NCBI GenBank assembly: GCA_964592785.1
Contig: CAZQHU010000002.1
Location: 12,680-76,679 of the forward strand
DNA: 64,000 nucleotides
Origin: an uncultured Gammaproteobacteria bacterium
GTDB taxonomy: Bacteria > Patescibacteriota > Patescibacteriia > Magasanikbacterales > UBA922
Direction of reading: 5' to 3'
Shown here: positions 9,302-63,320 of the stretch, piece after piece
How positions within the stretch are numbered: position 1 is the first letter of the stretch
Layout of the letters: every line of letters starts with the position of its first letter
The notes under the pieces: model-generated
The model's input: the letters and a program-made list of their open reading frames with translations, nothing else
Databases searched by the model: none
What the model was told of the DNA's origin: nothing
Made by a program: the position numbers and the translations under genes

Positions 9302-9961
9302 ATGTCTTCGCTTATCAGTGTAGTAATACCGGTCTATAAACAAGAAAAAGAGCTTGAACAAGCTTTGTTGTCCATAAAAAATCAGACTTACAAGAATATT
9401 GAAATTATTATAGAAAAAGATGAATTACATGAAGGCGCATCAGTAATGAGAAATAGGGGATTTGCTAAGGCCAAAGGAGATTATCTAATATTTTGGGATG
9501 CGGATGTAGTGGCTGTGCCAAAGATGTTGGAAGTGATGAAGAGTAAGTTGGATGAAAATCCGGGGGCTTCTTTTTCTTATTGTGATTACAATTTACAATT
9601 ATCAATTTTCAATTTCCAAAAAATTTTCAAATCTCAAATTTTCAATATTCAAACTTTAAAACAAAATAATTATATTCATTCCACTTCTCTCATTCGTCGA
9701 GTGGACGCTATAAAATGGGATGAAAAGTTAAGACGTTTCCAAGATTGGGATCTGTGGCTTACCATGGCTGAACAAGGAAAAGTTGGTGATTATATACCAG
9801 AAGTATTATTTACTATTATAGCCAAAGGTAGCATGAGCAGTTGGTTGCCAAGCTTTGCTTATAAAAAACCCTGGAAATGGCTTCCAGGATTTATAAATAA
9901 AGTGAGAGCTTATGAAGAGGCCAAAAAAGTTGTTATTTCTAAGCATTTTTTAGGCGATTAA
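9302..9961 (+). CDS. Glycosyltransferase family 2
   Basis: VVIPVYKQEKELEQALLSIKNQTYKNIEIII...FWDADV is the GT-A fold with a DxD motif. It contains an internal AT-rich low-complexity repeat at about 9594-9665. Confidence 0.8.
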   Translation: MSSLISVVIPVYKQEKELEQALLSIKNQTYKNIEIIIEKDELHEGASVMRNRGFAKAKGDYLIFWDADVVAVPKMLEVMKSKLDENPGASFSYCDYNLQLSIFNFQKIFKSQIFNIQTLKQNNYIHSTSLIRRVDAIKWDEKLRRFQDWDLWLTMAEQGKVGDYIPEVLFTIIAKGSMSSWLPSFAYKKPWKWLPGFINKVRAYEEAKKVVISKHFLGD

Positions 9962-11444
9962 AAACCCGGTAAAGAATTTTTATTGTCCGTTCAAAACCTT
10001 GGGTGTGTCTAAGGGCTAGAGTGGCTACCAAGGCTATAAAAAGAATGGTATAAACATGAAAAAGCGCGGGAATAGTAATATTCATCACCAAAAAAGCGAT
10101 AATTCCAGCCAAAAGTCCAACATCCAGATCATGCCAATCTTGGGTGTTTTTTATTTTTTTAATTAAACGAAAAATTACAAAAAAATAAAAGCTTAAAAGT
10201 ATTAAAGCTCCCAAAATTCCTAGTTCGGTCCACATTTCTAGATAGCCCCAGTCAAAATTTGCAGTAGTGATATTGGTATAAGTCAAAGGATTATAAAAAG
10301 TCACCATTGCCCCTAGGCCTTGTCCAAGAAGAGGATTTTGAGTTATTAGGTGCCAAATTTCTGGTAAAATGATCATTCTAGTTTCTGTGGATATCTCTAC
10401 GCTGGGATTAACAAAACTTTGGAGTCTTATACCAAAAAGCTCTAAACCCAAGGTTTTACCTCCTGAAGCCAAGAGATTACTGCCAATAAAAACTGAAAAA
10501 ATCAAAGTTATTAAAATAAATGATTGTTGCAACCATTTTTTCCAACTGTGTTTATATTTTAAAACTAGAAGACCGACCAAGAGTGCCAAAAAATATCCAC
10601 GTGATAAATTCAATACTAAAATGATAATTGCTGAAAAACGCAATACTCCCCACATCGGGTTGTGTTTTTCATCTCGCATTAGAAGAGAGGAAATGAAAAG
10701 TATCAAAGGAGCAATCAAAAGATGCTCCGGTTCTACGATTCGAAAAAAGCCATTGCCGAGATCAGTGATTTTTCCCAAATTTATATCTCTATACCAAGTA
10801 TAAAAATCCCCGTGGATTATTGACCAACCATTGCTAAAGAAAACAAAAGTAAAAATAGAAAAAATTGCCGTAGCCAAAATAAAAACTGTTAAAAGGCGAA
10901 CTAGGAATTCTTGCGTTTTCTCTTCTTGAAAAAGATGATAAGAAGGAAAGATCAAAAATAGAAGTATAAAAGGCACAAAATCGGCAACAATCTGATGCCA
11001 GCTGTGACTGTGATAAATGCCATTAATAATGGAAAAAAAGAGTAAAACAAAGAGTGTAATTAATAAATAAGTAAAATTTTTATCCAGATGCAGTCTTTGT
11101 TTTAGATTGTTTTTTCCTAATTGATGAAAAAACCAGAGAAAAAGAAAAAAACAAATAAATAAAGTACGAATGGATAGTCCCAAAAATTCCAAATAGTGTC
11201 CTGAACCTCCTAAAAAAAATTCACCTAAAAGCAAGTACCACCCATATTCTGGTTTTTTGAAATAAAGAATACCCAAAATCATTAATAATAAAAAAACCAA
11301 AAATGCTTGGATTAAATGGTGAGGAAATAACAAATAAGAAAAAAGCCTAATTAAAAAATAGACAATAAAAAGCAGGAAAGTTTGTTTGGTAAAAAAAATG
11401 GATTTATTGGCCAGATGTTCTTCGTACATATTAAATAAAGTCAA
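9939..11444 (-). CDS. O-antigen ligase/polymerase-like polytopic membrane protein (Wzy/WaaL family candidate)
   Basis: 501 aa with more than 10 TM helices and a large periplasmic-like loop; adjacent to the flippase and GT genes. Confidence 0.5.
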   Translation of the reverse strand: MTLFNMYEEHLANKSIFFTKQTFLLFIVYFLIRLFSYLLFPHHLIQAFLVFLLLMILGILYFKKPEYGWYLLLGEFFLGGSGHYLEFLGLSIRTLFICFFLFLWFFHQLGKNNLKQRLHLDKNFTYLLITLFVLLFFSIINGIYHSHSWHQIVADFVPFILLFLIFPSYHLFQEEKTQEFLVRLLTVFILATAIFSIFTFVFFSNGWSIIHGDFYTWYRDINLGKITDLGNGFFRIVEPEHLLIAPLILFISSLLMRDEKHNPMWGVLRFSAIIILVLNLSRGYFLALLVGLLVLKYKHSWKKWLQQSFILITLIFSVFIGSNLLASGGKTLGLELFGIRLQSFVNPSVEISTETRMIILPEIWHLITQNPLLGQGLGAMVTFYNPLTYTNITTANFDWGYLEMWTELGILGALILLSFYFFVIFRLIKKIKNTQDWHDLDVGLLAGIIAFLVMNITIPALFHVYTILFIALVATLALRHTQGFERTIKILYRVFNRLKNA

Positions 11445-11454
11445 AATTCAAAAA

Positions 11455-12399
11455 TCAAATTTCAAAACTTTTTAGATAACCATTGACAAAACTCCTGGCA
11501 TTTGTTGCTTTGGCACCTTCCAACTGTAATTCTACCACTTCTATTGAATTTTCACCACAACCAATAAATAATTTTTCGTTTTCCACTTTCCACTTTCCAC
11601 TTTCCACTGGCAACTCATCCAATCTAATTTTTAAAAGTTTCACTCGTTTGCCTTTCCATTCCGTCCACACTCCCGGCCAAGGCGTTAGCCCCCGATATTG
11701 GTTGTAAATATCCTTGGCAGTTTTTGTCCAATCAACTTTACCATCTTCCCGATTTAAGATTTTTGTATAGGTGGCTCGGGTATTATCTTGAGGGGTGGGT
11801 TTGATTATTCCTGAAATATAACCAGAAATAGCCTCTGTAAGGGCAAAATTGGCGATTTTAGCCAGTTTTTGGCTAAGTATGGGGTAAGTGTCGTTTGGAT
11901 CAATTTTGAGTGTTTTTTGTAGTAAAATTGGCCCGGTATCCATGCCAGCATCCATTTTCATAATCGTCACTCCAGTTTCGGTTTCACCATTTAACAAAGC
12001 TGTTTGAATAGGTGAGGCACCGCGGTATTTTGGCAGTAGGGAAGTGTGGACGTTTATGATGCCATGCTTTGGCGCATTTAAAATATTTTCTGGAATAATT
12101 AGTCCATATTGGGCACAAATTCCCCAGTCAAAAGTCTGTAAAGTCTTAAAGTCAAAAGTCTTGAGTGAGACAGGTTGTAATATTTTAAGATCGTGTTTCT
12201 CGGCCAAAATTTTTACAGCGGATTTTTGAAGCTCTTGTTTTCTGCCCACTGGTTTGTCGGGTTGAGTAATAACCAATCCAATACTAAAATTAGGATTGTC
12301 AATTAACCCTTGTAAAATTTCTGCGGCAAAGTCGTGCGTGCCAAAGAAAATGATATTGATTGTATTATTGTCCAATTGTTTTATTGTGGGACTTGACAT
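11455..12399 (-). CDS. fmt: Methionyl-tRNA formyltransferase
   Basis: IIFFGTHDFAAEIL...QPDKPVGRKQELQ...HTSLLPKYRGASPIQTALLNGETETGVTIMKMDAGMDTGPIL. Contains a (ttccac)4 repeat insertion. Confidence 0.92.
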   Translation of the reverse strand: MSSPTIKQLDNNTINIIFFGTHDFAAEILQGLIDNPNFSIGLVITQPDKPVGRKQELQKSAVKILAEKHDLKILQPVSLKTFDFKTLQTFDWGICAQYGLIIPENILNAPKHGIINVHTSLLPKYRGASPIQTALLNGETETGVTIMKMDAGMDTGPILLQKTLKIDPNDTYPILSQKLAKIANFALTEAISGYISGIIKPTPQDNTRATYTKILNREDGKVDWTKTAKDIYNQYRGLTPWPGVWTEWKGKRVKLLKIRLDELPVESGKWKVENEKLFIGCGENSIEVVELQLEGAKATNARSFVNGYLKSFEI

Positions 12400-20528: not shown

Positions 20529-21269
20529 ATGGAAATTTTGAGTGTTAAAGTTAACAATATCCAAAAATCTGAAATTCTGAATCAAATTAGACAATTTTTA
20601 AATTCAGATACATCACACAAAATTTTTACTCCTAACCCAGAGATGCTCGTTGATGCAGATAAAGACCAATATTTTAAAGAAATTTTGAATAGTGGTGATT
20701 TGAATGTTTGCGATGGGTTTGGACTTTCACTTGTGAGTGGAATCAAACGCTATCCGGGTGTAGAATTAATGTCAGATATCTGCGCATTGGCAGAAAACGA
20801 AAATAGGAGCGTATATTTACTTGGGAGTGGGAGTGATGAGGTGCTTAAGAAAACAGTGGAGGAATTGAATAAAAAATATCCAAATTTAAAAATTGTCGGC
20901 TATAATAAAGGCCCAGCAATTGGACTACAGACTATAGACCACAGACTACAAATCAACAAAATTGAAAATGAAGAGATTTTGAATGATATTATTATGTCTG
21001 CACCTGATATTCTCTTCGTTGCCTTTGGTCACGTTAAACAAGAAAAGTGGATATATGAAAATTTAAAACACCTGCCTAGCGTAAAAGTCGCTATGGGAGT
21101 AGGTGGAGCTTTTGATTTCATTTCCAAGAAAACCAAACGTGCCCCTTTATTTATGCGTAAAATTGGGTTAGAATGGTTATATCGCTTAATTAAACAGCCG
21201 TGGAGAATTAAACGAATTTGGAAAGCGACGGCGATATTTTTATTTTTATATGTTAGACAAAAGAGGTGA
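20529..21269 (+). CDS. WecB/TagA/CpsF-family glycosyltransferase (N-acetylmannosaminyltransferase-like)
   Basis: FTPNPEMLVDA...YLLGSG...VAFGHVKQEKWIYEN...VAMGVGGAFDFISKKTKRAPLFMRKIGLEWLYRLIKQPWR. Confidence 0.85.
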   Translation: MEILSVKVNNIQKSEILNQIRQFLNSDTSHKIFTPNPEMLVDADKDQYFKEILNSGDLNVCDGFGLSLVSGIKRYPGVELMSDICALAENENRSVYLLGSGSDEVLKKTVEELNKKYPNLKIVGYNKGPAIGLQTIDHRLQINKIENEEILNDIIMSAPDILFVAFGHVKQEKWIYENLKHLPSVKVAMGVGGAFDFISKKTKRAPLFMRKIGLEWLYRLIKQPWRIKRIWKATAIFLFLYVRQKR

Positions 21270-22423: not shown

Positions 22424-23870
22424 ATTTGCCCCTTCACCAACTGGCTTTGTTCATGTGGGTTCATTACGCACTGCTCTCTATGCTTATTTATTTGCTAAAA
22501 AAAATAAGGGTGCTTTTATTTTACGTATTGAAGATACAGACAGAGAAAGATATGTGGAAGGAGCCATTGAAAATCTTTTGAAATCACTTCATTGGTCAGG
22601 ACTGACAATTGATGAAGGAGTGGATTTTGATTTGAATAATAAAATTGTTCAAAAAGGAGACTGTGGTCCTTATGTTCAATCTGAAAGGCTAACTATATAC
22701 AAAAAACATGCTGAAAAATTGCTAGAAAAAAATCATGCCTATTATTGTTTTTGTTCAAAAGAAAGACTGGAAGAAGTGAAAAAAATTCAAGAATTAAATA
22801 AACAGCCAACTGGTTATGATGGGCATTGTCGTAATCTTCAACCGACTGAAGCCAAAAAAAGAGTTGAGGCAGGGGAGAGTCATGTAATAAGAATGAAAAT
22901 GCCAAAAGAGGGTGTGACCAAATTTAATGATTTGATACGTGGCGAAGTTTCTTTTGAAAATAAATTAGTTGACGACCAAGTAATAATGAAAGCTGATGGT
23001 TATCCTACTTATCATTTGGCGGTTGTAGTAGATGATCATCTCATGGAAATTACTCACGTCATCCGTGGTGAGGAGTGGCTTTCATCTACTCCTAAACATA
23101 TTGAACTTTATAAAATGTTTGGATGGCAAGCTCCTGAATTTGCTCATTTACCTTTACTTTTAAATTCTGACAAGTCAAAACTCTCCAAACGGCAAGGTGA
23201 TGTGGCGGTAGAGGACTATCGTGACAAAGGATATTTAGCACAAGCTTTGGTAAATTTTGTAGCCTTTTTGGGTTGGAATCCTGGAGATGAACGGGAAATA
23301 TTTAGTTTAGAGGAGCTTGTTAAAGAATTTAGTTTGGAAAAAGTTAATAAAGCTGGTGCCGTCTTTAATCTAGAAAAACTGGATTGGTACAATCGAGAAT
23401 ATATGAAAAAAATGAGTGATGAAGAATTAGCTGATTTATGTCAGCCCCTTTTGGAAGAAAAATTTCAAATTTCAAATTTCAAATTTCAAATTGACAAAGT
23501 TGTTGCATTAGAAAAAGAAAGAGCGACAACTTTGGTAGAGCTAGTGGAAAATGTTAGATTTATTTTTGAGCTGACTGATTATGAAGCTGATTTATTGATC
23601 TGGAAAAAGAGTGATGGAGTGAAAACCAGAGAAATTTTGGCTAAATTAAGCGATTTTTTGGCTAAATTAAGCGATTTTTCCAAAGAAAATCTAGAAAAGA
23701 AAATAGGGGAGTGGCTTGTTTCTGAGGGGTTTGGTACTGGTGATGTTCTGTGGCCGATGAGGGTTGCATTATCAGGACAAAAAAATTCTCCGGGGCCATA
23801 CGAAATTGCTGAAGTCTTGGAGAAAGAAGAAACTTTGAAAAGAATTAAAAATGCCATAGCTAAATTGTGA
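22410..23870 (+). CDS. gltX: Glutamyl-tRNA synthetase
   Basis: RFAPSPTGFVHVGSLRTALYAYLFAK...ILRIEDTDRER (HIGH region) and KLSKRQG (KMSKS). Contains internal short tandem repeats. Confidence 0.95.
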   Translation: MIRTRFAPSPTGFVHVGSLRTALYAYLFAKKNKGAFILRIEDTDRERYVEGAIENLLKSLHWSGLTIDEGVDFDLNNKIVQKGDCGPYVQSERLTIYKKHAEKLLEKNHAYYCFCSKERLEEVKKIQELNKQPTGYDGHCRNLQPTEAKKRVEAGESHVIRMKMPKEGVTKFNDLIRGEVSFENKLVDDQVIMKADGYPTYHLAVVVDDHLMEITHVIRGEEWLSSTPKHIELYKMFGWQAPEFAHLPLLLNSDKSKLSKRQGDVAVEDYRDKGYLAQALVNFVAFLGWNPGDEREIFSLEELVKEFSLEKVNKAGAVFNLEKLDWYNREYMKKMSDEELADLCQPLLEEKFQISNFKFQIDKVVALEKERATTLVELVENVRFIFELTDYEADLLIWKKSDGVKTREILAKLSDFLAKLSDFSKENLEKKIGEWLVSEGFGTGDVLWPMRVALSGQKNSPGPYEIAEVLEKEETLKRIKNAIAKL

Positions 23871-55664: not shown

Positions 55665-55745
55665 TATACAGATTGGAACACGGATCTAACGGATCAAACG
55701 GATTTGAACGGATTCGTTTTAATTCGTTAAATCCGTTCAATCCGT
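55665..55745. repeat. Array of AACGGAT heptamers (4 direct, then inverted copies) forming an imperfect palindrome in the atpF-atpH spacer
   Basis: aacacggatctaacggatcaaacggatttgaacggattcgttttaattcgttaaatccgttcaatccgtgtgc. Confidence 0.7.
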
Positions 55746-55748
55746 GTG

Positions 55749-58508: not shown

Positions 58509-59459
58509 TTATACTTTTATTTTATTGAAAAGTCGTAAAGCATTTTCCAAAGTAATTTTCTCCACTTCCTCAACAGATAAATGCCTAATCCCCGCAATTT
58601 TCTTCACCACTTCTTCCACCATCCAAGGTTCACATTTTTGCCCGCGATAAGCTTGAGGGGCCAGATATGGCGCATCGGTTTCCACCAAAATTCTATCCAA
58701 AGGACATTTTTCCACAACTTCCAATAAATCCAATGTTGGTTGAGGATCAGTTTTACGTGCAGGAAAAGTGATGACACCAGTGAAACCAATATAGAGTCCC
58801 AAAGTAAGGAATTTTTCTGCTTGTTGCCAATTACCGCCATAGCAGTGGACTACGCCCCAAGGTTCATTCCGAATCCCGCTCAAGCGGAGTGAGGAATCTT
58901 TCGAAGTAAGAACCTGTTGAATTACATTAGAATTGTGTACCCCAAAGTTATCTTCTCCGAAAGATTTCTCGCCTTTTAGTCTCGAAATGAGTGGAAACAT
59001 CTCATCGTAAGCATCGCGAATGTGAATAACAAGAGGTAAATTATGCTTTTGCGCAAAATTATATTGCTTAATAAAAATTTCTCTTTGTTTCTCTAAAACT
59101 TTTTCTTTATCTAACTCTTCCGGAAGATGAAAAAGTTCCAGCCCACACTCCCCTACTGCTATCACTTTTTTTGACTGTGCCAATTCATCATAAAATTTTT
59201 CATCAAAATCTTCTTCGTGCGATAAAAAACTGGATTCTTCCTCGTCTACTTGTTTGGCATGAAGGTGAATTGGATGAAGACCAATTGTCGCATAAATATT
59301 TTCATATTTTTCTGCCATTTCCACAGCTTTTTTACTGGTGTCCATTTGTGTACCAACAGCATTCATAACCACACCTTTCTGACGACAACGCGACAAGACG
59401 GCCTCGCGGTCGTCTTGATATCCTTGAAACTGAATATGACAATGAGTATCAATCATCAT
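58509..59459 (-). CDS. tatD: TatD-family metal-dependent hydrolase
   Basis: MMIDTHCHIQF and later His/Glu/Asp motifs; contains an in-frame repeat-element insertion at 58862-58898. Confidence 0.88.
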   Translation of the reverse strand: MMIDTHCHIQFQGYQDDREAVLSRCRQKGVVMNAVGTQMDTSKKAVEMAEKYENIYATIGLHPIHLHAKQVDEEESSFLSHEEDFDEKFYDELAQSKKVIAVGECGLELFHLPEELDKEKVLEKQREIFIKQYNFAQKHNLPLVIHIRDAYDEMFPLISRLKGEKSFGEDNFGVHNSNVIQQVLTSKDSSLRLSGIRNEPWGVVHCYGGNWQQAEKFLTLGLYIGFTGVITFPARKTDPQPTLDLLEVVEKCPLDRILVETDAPYLAPQAYRGQKCEPWMVEEVVKKIAGIRHLSVEEVEKITLENALRLFNKIKV

Positions 59460-60001
59460 AAATTATCTGCCAGTACATCTTCCATATAGTCAACTGAAGA
59501 TCTCAAAAGTTTCAAAGCTTCTGGTACAAAAGGTAATAATATCGCTGCAATAGATACTGTATAAGGTACGACTACTGAACCAGCCATCCAGCCCATAAAA
59601 CGCTCGGAAAGTGGTATTCTTTCAATAAAATAAAAAACTATCCCCAAACTAATAAGACCTTCCAAAAGTCCAAAAATTAAACCCAAAAAGCGATTGATAC
59701 CTCTAATGAAAGGCAAATAAGTAATAACATTGGTAGTCTTTTCTATTATCCAAAAAACAAAACCAACTAAACGGTTGATCACCACAAAAGCAATAATGAA
59801 CATGAGCACTTTGGAAAAATTGTCTCCCCAACCAGTAACTCCGATAAGCCAATCAGCCATCGGGCCATAGTAGCGAGTAGCCAAATAAACCCCAAATATT
59901 GTTCCCAAAAGAGAACCTAGAGTATGGATAAGTCCAAACCAAAACCCAAACATTCCAAAACCAGCAATGATAATGAGGAGAATGATGTCAAACAGGCCCA
60001 T
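59456..60001 (-). CDS. cvpA: CvpA-family membrane protein
   Basis: MGLFDIILLIIIAGFGMFGFWFGLIHTLGSLLGTIFGVYLA pattern. Confidence 0.8.
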   Translation of the reverse strand: MGLFDIILLIIIAGFGMFGFWFGLIHTLGSLLGTIFGVYLATRYYGPMADWLIGVTGWGDNFSKVLMFIIAFVVINRLVGFVFWIIEKTTNVITYLPFIRGINRFLGLIFGLLEGLISLGIVFYFIERIPLSERFMGWMAGSVVVPYTVSIAAILLPFVPEALKLLRSSVDYMEDVLADNL

Positions 60002-60094
60002 ATAGATTAATTTTAAAATTAAAATTTTTAATTTTTATTGACCCCTGCCGGACGGAAGCTTGGTTTTTTGCTTCCGTCCGGCAGATTCTGATCC

Positions 60095-60297: not shown

Positions 60298-61830
60298 CTA
60301 TTTTTCGAGCCGTGGAAAAAGAATTTCCTTTGCGCCTATGAGAGATCCCCCCCTAAGCGCGCCCCATGTTACTACTTTATCACTTGTATTTAATTGATTC
60401 AATATCTTTTCCGCAGTCTCGGGAATAATCGGAAATAAAGCCACAGCAATATGACGCAAACCTTCAGCTAGCTGATATAACAAACCAGAAATGTCTTCAC
60501 CAGCTTTGGCTTTTTTCCAAGGTTCTTGTTCAGAAATGAAACCGTCTAATCCTGCAACAAACTTATTTATTAAATTAACAACTTCTTCAAATTTATATTC
60601 ACCTAAATATTTATTATACTCTGTCCAAAAACTTTCCACTTTCCACTTTCCACTTTCCACTTGAGGAATCTTTGATTCCGAATATTTTTCAACCATTGTT
60701 AAAATCCTACTAGTCAAATTCCCTACTCCATTTACAAGATGTGCGGTATAAAATTCTTCAAAACGAGTAATACTAAAATCACCATCATCATAAGCTGGCA
60801 TGCCTCCAAGCAAAAAATAACGTACTGCATCTGTACCATATTTTTCAACTACTTTATAAGGTTCCACTACATTACCAAGAGATTTACTCATCTTTTGTCC
60901 TTCAGAAGTAATAAATCCATGAATAAACACTTGTTTTGAGTTTGGTAAACCAGCTGACATGAGCATTGCTTGCCACATAGCAGTCTGCTGACGTAAATTG
61001 TCTTTACCAGCTACTTGTACTCCCGGCCAAAACTCTGTATATAAGTCGGGTTTACCCGCCGAAGCTTTAGCGTAGATGGGCTTGTCCGGCGTAGCCTTGG
61101 CGAAGCCGGGCCAACCGAGTGTGGAAATATAGTTTATCAAAGCATCAAACCAGACATACATTACTTGCGTTTCATCTCCTGGTACAGGAATACCCCAAGG
61201 CATTTTTTCAGCCAATCTAGAAATACTAAAATCTTCCAAACCTCGCTCAACAAAGTTTTTAATTTCTAGCTGTCTATTTTGAGGTATAACAAAATTTGAA
61301 TTTTTTTCGTATAATTTTAATAAAGGTTTTTGGTATTTAGAAAATTTAAAAAAATAATTTTCTTCTTCAATTAATTCCAATTCCAAATTGGGGTGAACTG
61401 GACATTTACCATCAACTAGCTCTGAATCCGTTTTTTCCAATTCACAACCTACACAATATTTAACACTATAATTCTTTTTATAAATATCACCATTTTTTTC
61501 ACATAATTTCCAAAATTCCTGAGCAGCTTCTATGTGATGTTTATCAGTGGTGCGAATAAAATTGGTATAACTTAAATTCAAAGCTTGCTTCAAAGAATCA
61601 AATTTAGCAGCATATTCATCACAATATTTTTGTGGGTCAATTCCCAACTCTGTGGCTTTGCGAAAAATCTTTAGGCCGTGTTCATCCGTACCAGTATTAA
61701 AAATTACTTCTTCACCCAATAATTTGTGATAACGAGCGAGAACATCAGCTTGAATAATTTCCAAAGCAAAACCGATGTGAGGTTCAGCGTTTACATATGG
61801 CAAGGTGGTTGTAATATAATAGTTTTTCAT
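60298..61830 (-). CDS. metG: Methionyl-tRNA synthetase
   Basis: TTTLPYVNAEPHIGFALE (HIGH), KMSKS, and a zinc-knuckle CxxC...CPVH. Carries a (ttccac)4 insertion and a 30-nt tandem duplication. Confidence 0.95.
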   Translation of the reverse strand: MKNYYITTTLPYVNAEPHIGFALEIIQADVLARYHKLLGEEVIFNTGTDEHGLKIFRKATELGIDPQKYCDEYAAKFDSLKQALNLSYTNFIRTTDKHHIEAAQEFWKLCEKNGDIYKKNYSVKYCVGCELEKTDSELVDGKCPVHPNLELELIEEENYFFKFSKYQKPLLKLYEKNSNFVIPQNRQLEIKNFVERGLEDFSISRLAEKMPWGIPVPGDETQVMYVWFDALINYISTLGWPGFAKATPDKPIYAKASAGKPDLYTEFWPGVQVAGKDNLRQQTAMWQAMLMSAGLPNSKQVFIHGFITSEGQKMSKSLGNVVEPYKVVEKYGTDAVRYFLLGGMPAYDDGDFSITRFEEFYTAHLVNGVGNLTSRILTMVEKYSESKIPQVESGKWKVESFWTEYNKYLGEYKFEEVVNLINKFVAGLDGFISEQEPWKKAKAGEDISGLLYQLAEGLRHIAVALFPIIPETAEKILNQLNTSDKVVTWGALRGGSLIGAKEILFPRLEK

Positions 61831-61833
61831 AAC

Positions 61834-61858
61834 TTAGTAAGTAGTAATTAGTAAATAG
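61834..61858. repeat. Left 25-bp perfect inverted repeat flanking the four-helix-bundle gene
   Basis: ttagtaagtagtaattagtaaatag; its exact reverse complement lies at 62244-62268. Confidence 0.85.
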
Positions 61859-61861
61859 AAA

Positions 61862-62224
61862 TTAGGATAGGTTAGATTCTGTAGATCGAATTAAACCATT
61901 AATTAACTTTGCAATTTCAATACTTTGTTCACCTAATTTCCGACTTATTATACCATCAATAAAATTTAAATCTTTAGCTAATAAAATAAAATTTTGGACT
62001 TCTGCCACTGAACCCCTAGCTTGATAATAAAATCTTATTTTATCCTTAAAATGATATCTAGCAAAACCTTCAGCAATATTGGCAGTTATGGAACTAGAAG
62101 CTCTTCGTAACTGACTAATAATTCCATATAATTCTTCTCTTGGCAAATCATTTGTCATCTTATAAATTTCTAATACTAGCAAATGACCCTTCTTCCAAGC
62201 ATCTAGATCATAAAAATTCATCAT
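61862..62224 (-). CDS. Four-helix-bundle protein of the 23S rRNA intervening-sequence (IVS) protein family
   Basis: MMNFYDLDAWKKGHLLVLEIYKMTNDLPREELYGIISQLRRASSSITANIAEGFARYHFKDKIRFYYQARGSVAEVQ is typical of the TIGR02436/S23-IVS family. Confidence 0.8.
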   Translation of the reverse strand: MMNFYDLDAWKKGHLLVLEIYKMTNDLPREELYGIISQLRRASSSITANIAEGFARYHFKDKIRFYYQARGSVAEVQNFILLAKDLNFIDGIISRKLGEQSIEIAKLINGLIRSTESNLS

Positions 62225-62243
62225 AAAAAAGTTACTAGTTACT

Positions 62244-62268
62244 ATTTACTAATTACTACTTACTAACC
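62244..62268. repeat. Right 25-bp perfect inverted repeat; supplies the last codons and stop of rsmI
   Basis: ctatttactaattactacttactaa is the reverse complement of the left copy. Confidence 0.85.
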
Positions 62269-62984
62269 ACCACCACAAATTCCCCTTTTTCACTAATATT
62301 CATTTTTAAAATTTCTTGAATTGTTCCTCGATAAACAGTTTCAAATTTTTTGGTCAACTCACGACAAACGCAAATCTGTCGTTTTTTATCCAAAACTTCG
62401 GCCAATTCGCCCAAACATTTCTTGATCCTATGTGATGATTCATAAAAGGCCACAGTATATTCTGCTTTAACCACTTCTTTAAAAAATGTTTGTCGGCCTT
62501 TTTTGTGTGGAGGAAAACCGAGAAATAAAAATTTATTCGTATCAAACCCTGATATAGATAATGCAGTTATAACTGCGCTTGGACCTGGGATTGGCACTAC
62601 CACGTCATCCTGAGCGATAGCCGAAGGATCTCTTTCCTCAACGAGATATTTCGACTTTGCCCTTCGGGCTTCGCTCAATATGACGCTAACAAGTTCATTC
62701 CCCGGATCACTAATCCCTGGTGTACCGGCATCAGTTACCAAGGCCAGATTCTTACCACTTTCTAATAATTTCTCAATTTCCATTAATTTCCCAGTCTCGC
62801 TATGTTGATGATAAGAAATTGTTTTGGTTTTTATATTAAAATGATTCAAAAGTTTTTGGGTATTCCTGGTATCCTCGCATAAAATAAAATCCACGTCCTT
62901 TAAAATTTCCAAAGCACGCAAAGTAACATCACCAAGATTTCCAATTGGTGTAGCCACTATGTAGAGTTTGCCTAGTTCTGACAT
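62256..62984 (-). CDS. rsmI: 16S rRNA (cytidine1402-2'-O)-methyltransferase RsmI
   Basis: LYIVATPIGNLGDVTLRALEILKDVDFILCEDTRNTQKLL; tetrapyrrole-methylase fold; contains a roughly 22-aa insertion. Confidence 0.88.
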   Translation of the reverse strand: MSELGKLYIVATPIGNLGDVTLRALEILKDVDFILCEDTRNTQKLLNHFNIKTKTISYHQHSETGKLMEIEKLLESGKNLALVTDAGTPGISDPGNELVSVILSEARRAKSKYLVEERDPSAIAQDDVVVPIPGPSAVITALSISGFDTNKFLFLGFPPHKKGRQTFFKEVVKAEYTVAFYESSHRIKKCLGELAEVLDKKRQICVCRELTKKFETVYRGTIQEILKMNISEKGEFVVVVSK

Positions 62985-63049: not shown

Positions 63050-63290
63050 AACTTTATCTTGTCAAAGGAGACCTATCTTCGAAGAAAGACAGCACCTACC
63101 GCTACGCAGGGAAAGTGGCTACACGCCGTTCAACTGCCTGGCTATCCTTCTGGATGGCCTCTTCGACCTCGTCGCCCTTCTCCAAGACAAGTGGCGCCAA
63201 GCCGCTTGAACCATTCGCCGGCCAGCTATCCACGCGCCGGCACTTCCAAAAATAAACCCGCCCCACATATTCCGGGGCGGGTATTTTTAT
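63050..63290 (+). ncRNA. GC-rich island 5: candidate small RNA, or degenerated relative of the island 1/3 genes
   Basis: About 240 nt at more than 55% GC between a promoter-like element and a strong terminator. Its only ORF starts at TTG without an SD and encodes a P/R/S-rich low-complexity peptide. Its 5' end (aaaggagac...) resembles the island 1 leader. Confidence 0.3.
63255..63289. terminator. Bidirectional intrinsic terminator (island 5 and the ferredoxin/nifU operon)
   Basis: acccgccccacatattccggggcgggt flanked by A-runs and T-runs. Confidence 0.75.
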
Positions 63291-63320
63291 CCTCTTCTTT
63301 TTAAAAGTAAAAGAGGAAAA

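Follow-up and report, generated by a model that had tools for sequence, protein, structure and literature searches.

A four-helix-bundle gene between complementary heptamer arrays at an rsmI-metG junction of Magasanikbacteria: a probable relative of the 23S rRNA intervening sequences

In the 64-kb stretch of DNA analysed here (contig CAZQHU010000002.1; "the window"), a small gene encoding a four-helix-bundle (4HB) protein lies between rsmI and metG and is enclosed by two complementary arrays of tandem heptamers. Array, gene and array probably represent a widespread cassette of ~430 bp that is akin to the open reading frame (ORF)-bearing intervening sequences (IVSs) of 23S rRNA genes and that, in this member of the Magasanikbacteria (Patescibacteria), occupies the stop/start junction of two protein-coding genes. 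The cassette forms a discrete unit that some close relatives possess and others lack and that also has dispersed paralogues, and its layout is a property of the gene family and not of a single locus.

The element spans positions 61834-62266 (433 bp), with the 4HB ORF between rsmI and metG and all three genes on the minus strand (Table 1). Its borders form a perfect 25-bp inverted repeat, each strand carrying one copy of TTAGTAAGTAGTAATTAGTAAATAG (61834-61858 on the plus and 62242-62266 on the minus strand). In the extended arms (61834-61865 and 62235-62266), 30 of 32 positions pair (94%) and 369 nt lie between them. No match to the 25-mer is expected by chance, as 100 shuffles gave none even with 3 mismatches allowed. 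The exact repeat around an IVS-type 4HB gene and its position between metG and rsmI, outside any rRNA gene, had been described in a first-pass annotation of this DNA. Both points are confirmed by the coordinates and the profile matches, and neither rRNA nor tRNA genes were found in the 64-kb window, including by an Rfam rRNA search; the cassette itself also stands, but its length of 435 bp has to be corrected to 433 bp. What had been overlooked is that both arms consist of tandem heptamers (TAGTAAN and its complement). On the rsmI side, the transcript reads ...GTG GTG GTG GTT AGT AAG TAG(rsmI stop) TAAT TAGTAAA TAGTAAC TAGTAAC TTTTTT ATG(4HB), and on the metG side (4HB) TAA TTTC TATTTAC TAATTAC TACTTAC TAA GTT ATG(metG). 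The 5' array of five units ends 6 nt before the ATG of the 4HB gene and the 3' array 3 nt before the ATG of metG. At its outer end, the 5' arm runs into the last codons of rsmI, GTT AGT AAG TAG (62267-62256), of which AGT AAG TAG lie inside the outer 11 nt of the arm.

The encoded protein matches PF05635 (3.7e-34, 117.6 bits, cut-off 33.8) and TIGR02436 (3.2e-32, 111 bits, cut-off 24), has a pI of 8.9 and is modelled by AlphaFold2 with a pLDDT of 93. The best fold match is 2GSC (Xcc0516; TM 0.87, rmsd 1.1 Å), which is also matched at 6.7e-15, followed by 2RLD (BT_0352; TM 0.85), and both solved structures contain five chains. Next comes bAvd of the Bordetella phage retroelement (4DWL, 8UB7), with a TM of ~0.8 at 7-9% identity, and matches to PF22296, the bAvd family, are recorded for relatives of the 4HB protein. 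For the 4HB gene, dN/dS amounts to 0.07 between the window and locus L047, 0.08 for L002/L006, 0.07 for L007/L008, 0.13 for L001/L012 and 0.23 for L011/L013. With these low values, the protein is under purifying selection and functional in this lineage, unlike the decaying ORF of Coxiella.

A one-genome-per-species scan yielded 37 loci with relatives 44-76% identical to the window protein, mostly in Patescibacteria, and the layout was surveyed around ~40 relatives from Patescibacteria, Cyanobacteria and Bacteroidota. The shared plan, which recurs at nearly all of the scanned loci, consists of the stop of the upstream gene, 3-6 heptamers of the AGTAAYN type and a gene of 120-126 aa from its ATG to its stop, followed by 3-5 complementary heptamers (NRTTACT type) and, after 2-10 nt, the ATG of the next gene. 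A heptamer array precedes the ATG in the ~40 relatives, and its complement follows the stop in most of them. The best score of the flanking inverted repeat has a median of 18 at 4HB loci compared with 7 for 1050 mock placements in the same loci, and 27 of 35 4HB loci lie above the 99th percentile of these controls. Self-identity at lag 7 reaches 0.73 upstream and 0.71 downstream of 4HB genes against 0.39 in random windows, and no such signal appears in these flanks at lags 4-6 and 8-11. A lag-7 identity of at least 0.7 is found in 82% of the regions upstream of 4HB genes and in 7.9% of 216 other gene starts of the same loci (p ~1e-15). In ~30 of 35 loci, both neighbours are co-directional with the 4HB gene, and the operons concerned are many and different. 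Plasmids of cultured organisms carry the same layout built from other units: GAGTCAG in Aulosira and Nostoc (Nostocales), AAGGTTY in Riemerella and GGAGATA in Picosynechococcus, where the gene (L058, NZ_CP016476.1) lies between cmr2 (cas10) and cmr3. The statement that this family is usually encoded inside 23S rRNA intervening sequences did not hold in our survey, as none of the 40 relatives' loci scanned contains rRNA. A tblastn search of 50,697 phage records for carriage by phages returned no match. As a separate observation, a Levybacteria chromosome (L031, 4448-4520) has a tRNA gene and no protein-coding gene 60 nt after its 4HB gene, and the arms are weak and non-heptameric there.

The closest relatives of the window protein occur at different junctions: one that is 83% identical lies also at rsmI-metG (L047), one of 77% at pheS-pheT (L051), one of 76% between ftsK and a gene with an HTH_25 domain (L048) and one of 79% upstream of a radical-SAM gene (L052). 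Further cassettes stand ahead of genes that we take, from their N-termini, to be dnaJ, ruvA, murC, nrdR and rplK. Two cassettes within one metagenome-assembled genome of Magasanikbacteria (L007 and L008) are 81% identical over ~440 bp, and the likeness starts and stops at the arms, while the flanks are unrelated. At the rsmI-metG junction itself, syntenic loci with the gene order IscS-NifU-ferredoxin-RsmI-MetG-CvpA were reached via relatives of RsmI. The junction is filled with a 4HB cassette in L047, whose MetG is 84% identical to that of the window, and empty in L041 and L042 (MetG 79.5%), which read "...GTA ATT AGT AAT TAA T ATG". It carries a 90-nt spacer in L039 (78%), an ORF-less hairpin of 9-nt repeats in L060, a GC-rich palindromic element in L045 (75.5%) and L061, an unrelated 368-nt insert in L043 (73%) and a frameshifted 4HB cassette in L035 (46.5%). 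The five cassettes found at pheS-pheT have 4HB proteins that diverged in step with PheS and PheT, and therefore these copies have long been inherited vertically. That the element is mobile or excisable, as the first-pass annotation had proposed, is thus borne out for a unit that comes and goes, as seen from empty and filled junctions, paralogues and unrelated sites, while excision as RNA and mobility as DNA can only be inferred.

Some of the other junction inserts deserve mention in their own right. The 90-nt spacer of L039 was considered as a decayed cassette because it begins with bases similar to the 5' arm (20 of 25 nt align), but the overall score lies within the shuffled range and we regard it as a possible remnant only. 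The 368-nt insert (L043, 3676-4043; also in L044; Magasanikbacteria) is GC-rich and non-coding, bears no relation to the cassette and may represent a structured RNA. In L045 and L061, the spacer is a GC-rich palindrome (GTCATCCTGAGGAATCCCGAC...GTCGGGATGAC) that supplies the last codons of RsmI. The hairpin of L060 (1724-1808) resembles an ORF-less hairpin at 55677-55748 of the window, which lies between two minus-strand ORFs and has arms of tandem 9-nt units (AACGGATYN x4, a TTTT loop and the complement).

The repeat itself was not found again as such. No second copy of the 25-mer, even with 3 mismatches, exists in the 64-kb window, and none in 185,579 species-representative genomes, a set that does not include the source genome. 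The single match in metagenomes (L038, 790-829; contig JGI11643J11755_10947426) is a solo (TAGTAAN)x5 array, which on the minus strand is followed, after 4 nt, by the ATG of a 109-aa ORF; this GC-rich contig of 1 kb contains the end of a histidine-kinase-like gene and no 4HB gene. Judged from these searches, the 25-mer is not a multi-copy terminal repeat, and the arm sequences are specific to each cassette. A lack of further copies, together with rsmI orthologues that end in the same residues without the repeat, had been named in advance as favouring coincidence. We found both, yet the evidence from the whole family contradicts coincidence, and since each cassette has its own arms, such a criterion is too narrow.

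While arm sequences change, their complementarity is kept. The 5' and 3' arms of one locus match each other better than arms taken from other loci (mean 18.3 versus 11.7), and the consensus fold of the five pheS-pheT orthologues (Moraniibacteriota) has a terminal stem of 26 pairs with two compensatory pairs. Between the window and L047, dS is 1.34, so that unconstrained sites have turned over; nevertheless, the window arms are still paired at 25 of 25 positions, and the arms of the two loci differ at about half of the variable positions with each pair complementary. Taken together, own-arm matching, compensatory pairs and complementarity in spite of saturated dS argue that the pairing is actively maintained. 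An asymmetry in purine content between 5' and 3' arms (24 of 32 loci) was not used, as the loci are not phylogenetically independent.

Based on these features, the following working of the cassette can be proposed. Promoter consensus matches in the region are weak only (16 versus 9.6 +/- 3.3 expected), and no terminator-like site was found between rsmI and metG. With no convincing promoter or terminator in the cassette or between the three genes, it is probably co-transcribed with both neighbours and would be read on a shared rsmI-4HB-metG transcript without a promoter or terminator of its own. On this RNA, the arms would close a stem of at least 25 bp around the 4HB ORF. The ability of the transcript to form such a terminal stem had been predicted before and is supported by our folding, as the duplex is present in the minimum-free-energy fold and amounts to -31.5 kcal/mol when taken alone. 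RNase III may then cut the stem as in the Coxiella IVS, which would free the 4HB message and part the rsmI from the metG message, giving three messages. Of the 43 ORFs of the window, only 1 has a Shine-Dalgarno-like core in front of it, compared with 6% of random positions; in an organism that does not use this signal, initiation should depend on an unstructured start region. The intact stem would reach to within 3 nt of the metG ATG and thereby hide this start, which could be unmasked either by cleavage of the stem or by a ribosome terminating at the rsmI stop. With this stop 8 nt inside the 25-nt arm, nearly all of the stem would be melted by a ribosome that terminates there, analogous to the long-range translational coupling known from RNA phages. 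By either route, the tight coupling of the empty junction (TAA T ATG) would be kept, so that an insertion exactly at the stop/start would be tolerated and remain harmless. As for the protein, a putative pentamer most likely has the heptamer arrays, as RNA or as single-stranded DNA, for its target, as suggested by the tandem 7-nt units, by the 3-6 copies in which they usually occur and by the binding of nucleic acids by bAvd.

The first-pass annotation had further held that the right repeat supplies the final codons and stop of rsmI. This cannot be demonstrated, because AGT AAT TAA is also found at the empty junction of L041, where rsmI ends in ...ATT AGT AAT TAA T ATG. The final rsmI codons of the window may be either native sequence that is paired by the 3' arm or a relic that was kept in L041.

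Several observations weigh against the kinship with the rRNA IVSs and the RNA-based working outlined above. Mismatches within the arms are as often G-U as A-C (43 each), so that the pairing may be preserved in the DNA or through concerted evolution, and not by selection on the sense RNA, and the sense-strand duplex is the more stable one in only 23 of 36 loci (p = 0.02), which is a weak asymmetry. Sequence that makes up the outer 11 bp of the stem is also found at the empty site. Cleavage by RNase III is proposed by analogy with Coxiella, and the signature motif of RNase III was not found in the 64-kb window. The filled/empty pair shows no target-site duplication, and neither a recombinase nor a transposase was found within or beside any cassette. 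In addition, the stem is not obligatory for the family, since the arrays of a Pseudanabaena plasmid (L057, NZ_CP112875.1; between cas6 and cas4) comprise 16 and 10 units in direct and not inverted orientation, and a cyanobacterial locus with a Calothrix gene (L054) has no arrays at all.

Among the alternatives, a mobile element acting at the DNA level, such as a miniature inverted-repeat transposable element (MITE) or a small insertion sequence, is one that we consider unlikely. The arms would then be terminal inverted repeats or hairpins of single-stranded DNA used by a recombinase encoded elsewhere, the RNA stem would be incidental and the 4HB gene cargo or a cofactor. The variation of the rsmI-metG junction between filled and empty, paralogous copies that are bounded by the arms, near-identical proteins at unrelated sites and the lack of a G-U over A-C bias are in line with this explanation, as is the finding that ORF-less hairpins with repeat arms occupy the same kind of junction. 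Yet it would equally have to cope with the missing transposase or recombinase and target-site duplication, and terminal repeats recognized by a single enzyme would be expected to keep their sequence, whereas orthologous arms differ and stay complementary. The orientation, which almost always equals that of the host operon, and the pheS-pheT cassettes, whose divergence in step with their flanks indicates long residence and not active hopping, also speak against it.

Even less likely, in our view, is a domesticated regulatory module of the host, in which the 4HB protein acts as an RNA-binding regulator on the arrays, the stem gates or couples the downstream gene and nothing is selfish. Strong purifying selection on the protein, retention at pheS-pheT across diverged Moraniibacteriota, a downstream start that always lies within a few bases of the 3' arm and the solo heptamer arrays of the window would fit such a role. 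However, close relatives with equal gene order have the same junction without the cassette, the host operons are unrelated in function (aminoacyl-tRNA ligases, ftsK, dnaJ, ruvA, murC, cas), and in Coxiella the ORF decays while the element persists (PMC4990558).

It is very improbable that the gene is the Avd component of a diversity-generating retroelement or that the cassette is an invertible switch for phase variation. The bAvd-like fold (TM ~0.8) and the PF22296 matches of relatives point towards the former, and inverted repeats around a segment of ~400 bp are also seen in invertons; but no reverse transcriptase or template repeat lies beside the gene in the window or at the loci with recorded Pfam matches, and co-directionality of the 4HB gene with its neighbours in ~30 of 35 loci gives no sign of flipping. 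A reverse transcriptase is absent from the identified neighbours at the window locus and at the loci of relatives, the rest of the window not having been scanned for one. An integron cassette was considered as well and rejected. Finally, a chance or compositional inverted repeat in an AT-rich and repeat-rich genome can be dismissed, since, although the genome has 35% G+C and holds other period-7 arrays and the native end of rsmI is already heptamer-like, the shuffles gave zero matches, 27 of 35 loci exceed the 99th percentile and the period-7 signal is specific to 4HB flanks.

Table 1. Cassette and host genes in the window (all on the minus strand).
Feature	Position	Strand	Details
rsmI, 16S rRNA C1402 2'-O-methyltransferase, upstream host gene	62256..62984	-	TIGR00096 7.1e-68, PF00590; syntenic orthologues
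5' arm	62231..62266	-	T + TAGTAAG TAGTAAT TAGTAAA TAGTAAC TAGTAAC (five heptamers); exact pairing part 62266-62242
5' array (Tandem Repeats Finder)	62230-62265		period 7, 5.1 copies
Spacer from 5' array to 4HB ATG	62230-62225		TTTTTT
4HB ORF	61862..62224	-	120 aa; PF05635/TIGR02436, bAvd-like
3' arm	61834..61865	-	(TAA stop) TTTC TATTTAC TAATTAC TACTTAC TAA; exact 25-nt part 61858-61834
3' array (Tandem Repeats Finder)	61835-61862		period 7, 4.1 copies
metG, methionine-tRNA ligase, downstream host gene	60298..61830	-	TIGR00398 7.3e-131; aligned with orthologues
Additional nucleotides compared with the empty L041/L042 junction (rsmI stop, T, metG ATG)	61832..62255	-	424 nt

Besides rsmI and metG, the neighbours identified in the window are genes for a ferredoxin, NifU and a CvpA-like protein. 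Between the ferredoxin gene and rsmI, a GC-rich stretch (63059-63304) includes, on the minus strand, a strong hairpin with a T-run behind it (63282-63256) that resembles a terminator; at this position, relatives encode a hypothetical protein of 127-143 aa. GC-rich in-frame inserts interrupt both host genes, which are otherwise AT-rich: 'SEARRAKSKYLVEERDPSAIAQDD' at ~62590-62690 in rsmI, where relatives have other inserts or none, and 'GFAKATPDKPIYAKASAGKPDLYT' at ~61050-61120 in metG, which is absent in L039, L041 and L045 and replaced by a different insert in L043. The palindrome in the spacer of L045 and L061 is similar to these inserts. The heptamer (TTTCCAC)x4 (plus strand) occurs in frame in two genes, at 60631-60662 in metG, in place of a segment that is variable among relatives, and at 11580-11608 in an ORF (11455..12399, minus strand) that by eye we take to encode methionyl-tRNA formyltransferase; both copies encode 'VESGKWKVE'. 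Further period-7 arrays are located at 23460-23492, 20923-20950, 60007-60037, 9586-9661 and 11437-11467, two of them inside long ORFs, with units including AAATTTC x4.7, GACTACA x4 and TTAATTT x4.4; the one at 60007-60037 lies upstream of the CvpA-like gene (59456..60001, minus strand), 6 nt from its start. Thus, solo arrays of heptamers occur generally in this genome.

In a wider and rather tentative reading, which we regard as possible but clearly less probable than the kinship with IVSs, the PF05635 pentamers would be the trans-acting partners of the STRR, TAACTGA, GGGAATC and TAGTAAN arrays, and array, 4HB gene and array would form one self-propagating, pan-bacterial module with hosts among Cyanobacteria, Bacteroidota, Beggiatoaceae, Xanthomonas, Coxiella and Patescibacteria. 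Such a module would settle at positions that tolerate a cut in the RNA, namely stop/start junctions within operons and, as in the classical IVSs, the tips of rRNA helices. In each case, the protein and its heptamer unit would evolve together, approximately one subunit binding each repeat, and solo arrays upstream of genes as well as in-frame arrays would represent footprints or secondary targets.

To our knowledge, IVSs have been regarded as a peculiarity of rRNA genes, and we know of no role assigned to their ORF in 30 years. If the element routinely lives between protein-coding genes, it would be defined by its arms and its gene and not by rRNA, and the protein, being clearly functional in some lineages, would be open to study wherever selection acts on it. 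One testable system would then unite the "S23 ribosomal protein"/bAvd-like family, the IVS ORFs and the heptamers upstream of starts in several phyla. In guilt-by-association screens (PMC3936711, PMC10910872), the 4HB family also comes up repeatedly next to cas and other operons. Given the cas6-cas4 and cmr2-cmr3 cases, such "CRISPR-associated" 4HB matches may be insertions and not functional partners.

In comparison with known systems, the cassette shares with MITEs and palindromes of the repetitive extragenic palindrome (REP) and bacterial interspersed mosaic element (BIME) type that it is small, bounded by repeats, intergenic and variably present among relatives; it differs from them by carrying a conserved protein gene, by copy-specific heptamers as arms and in that neither a duplicated target nor a cognate transposase was found. 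With bAvd (4DWL, 8UB7), the protein has the four-helix-bundle fold in common (TM ~0.8), and 2GSC and 2RLD have five chains like bAvd, whereas the identity is 7-9% and no reverse transcriptase, template or variable repeat is nearby.

Tandem heptamers have been described near start codons as TAACTGA in Beggiatoaceae, Cyanobacteria and Bacteroidetes (PMC4679880) and as GGGAATC in Xanthomonas, where 70-75 convergent (inverted) pairs exist per genome (PMC4692102); heptamer repeats are also described in Nostoc (10.1101/2022.06.06.494920). The arrays reported here are comparable in having 7-nt units in 2-6 or more copies, mostly between co-directional genes and a few bases before a start codon, and in some cases the known arrays extend into the end of the preceding ORF and provide stop codons in every frame. 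In contrast to those papers, which make no link to a 4HB gene, the complementary pair here encloses one. A full-text search, in which few subscription journals are represented, revealed no link between 4HB genes and flanking heptamer arrays other than the Coxiella description; we thus did not find the general pattern of complementary heptamer arrays around 4HB genes in protein-coding operons described, although a prior description is possible.

The closest counterpart is the ORF-bearing 23S IVS of Coxiella burnetii and Leptospira. The IVS of C. burnetii has complementary borders, three tandem GACAGAT units directly upstream of an S23p ORF, which is decaying while the element persists, and RNase III cuts that were mapped in the stem (PMC4990558); 23S_rRNA_IVP ORFs are also reported among the rRNA insertions of bacteria of the candidate phyla radiation (10.1101/2024.02.27.582315). 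The window element resembles these IVSs in its length of ~430 nt, an S23p/PF05635 ORF in the sense orientation of the host transcript, complementary borders of a long stem, heptamers directly upstream of the ATG and a sporadic distribution. It differs in its unit (TAGTAAN), in an ORF that is under purifying selection and in its host transcript, an rsmI-metG mRNA whose fragments cannot be held together by a ribosome; RNase III excision without re-ligation is shown for Coxiella only. Lying outside rRNA, it is therefore not an IVS in the strict sense, but it shares all other structural features that we tested.

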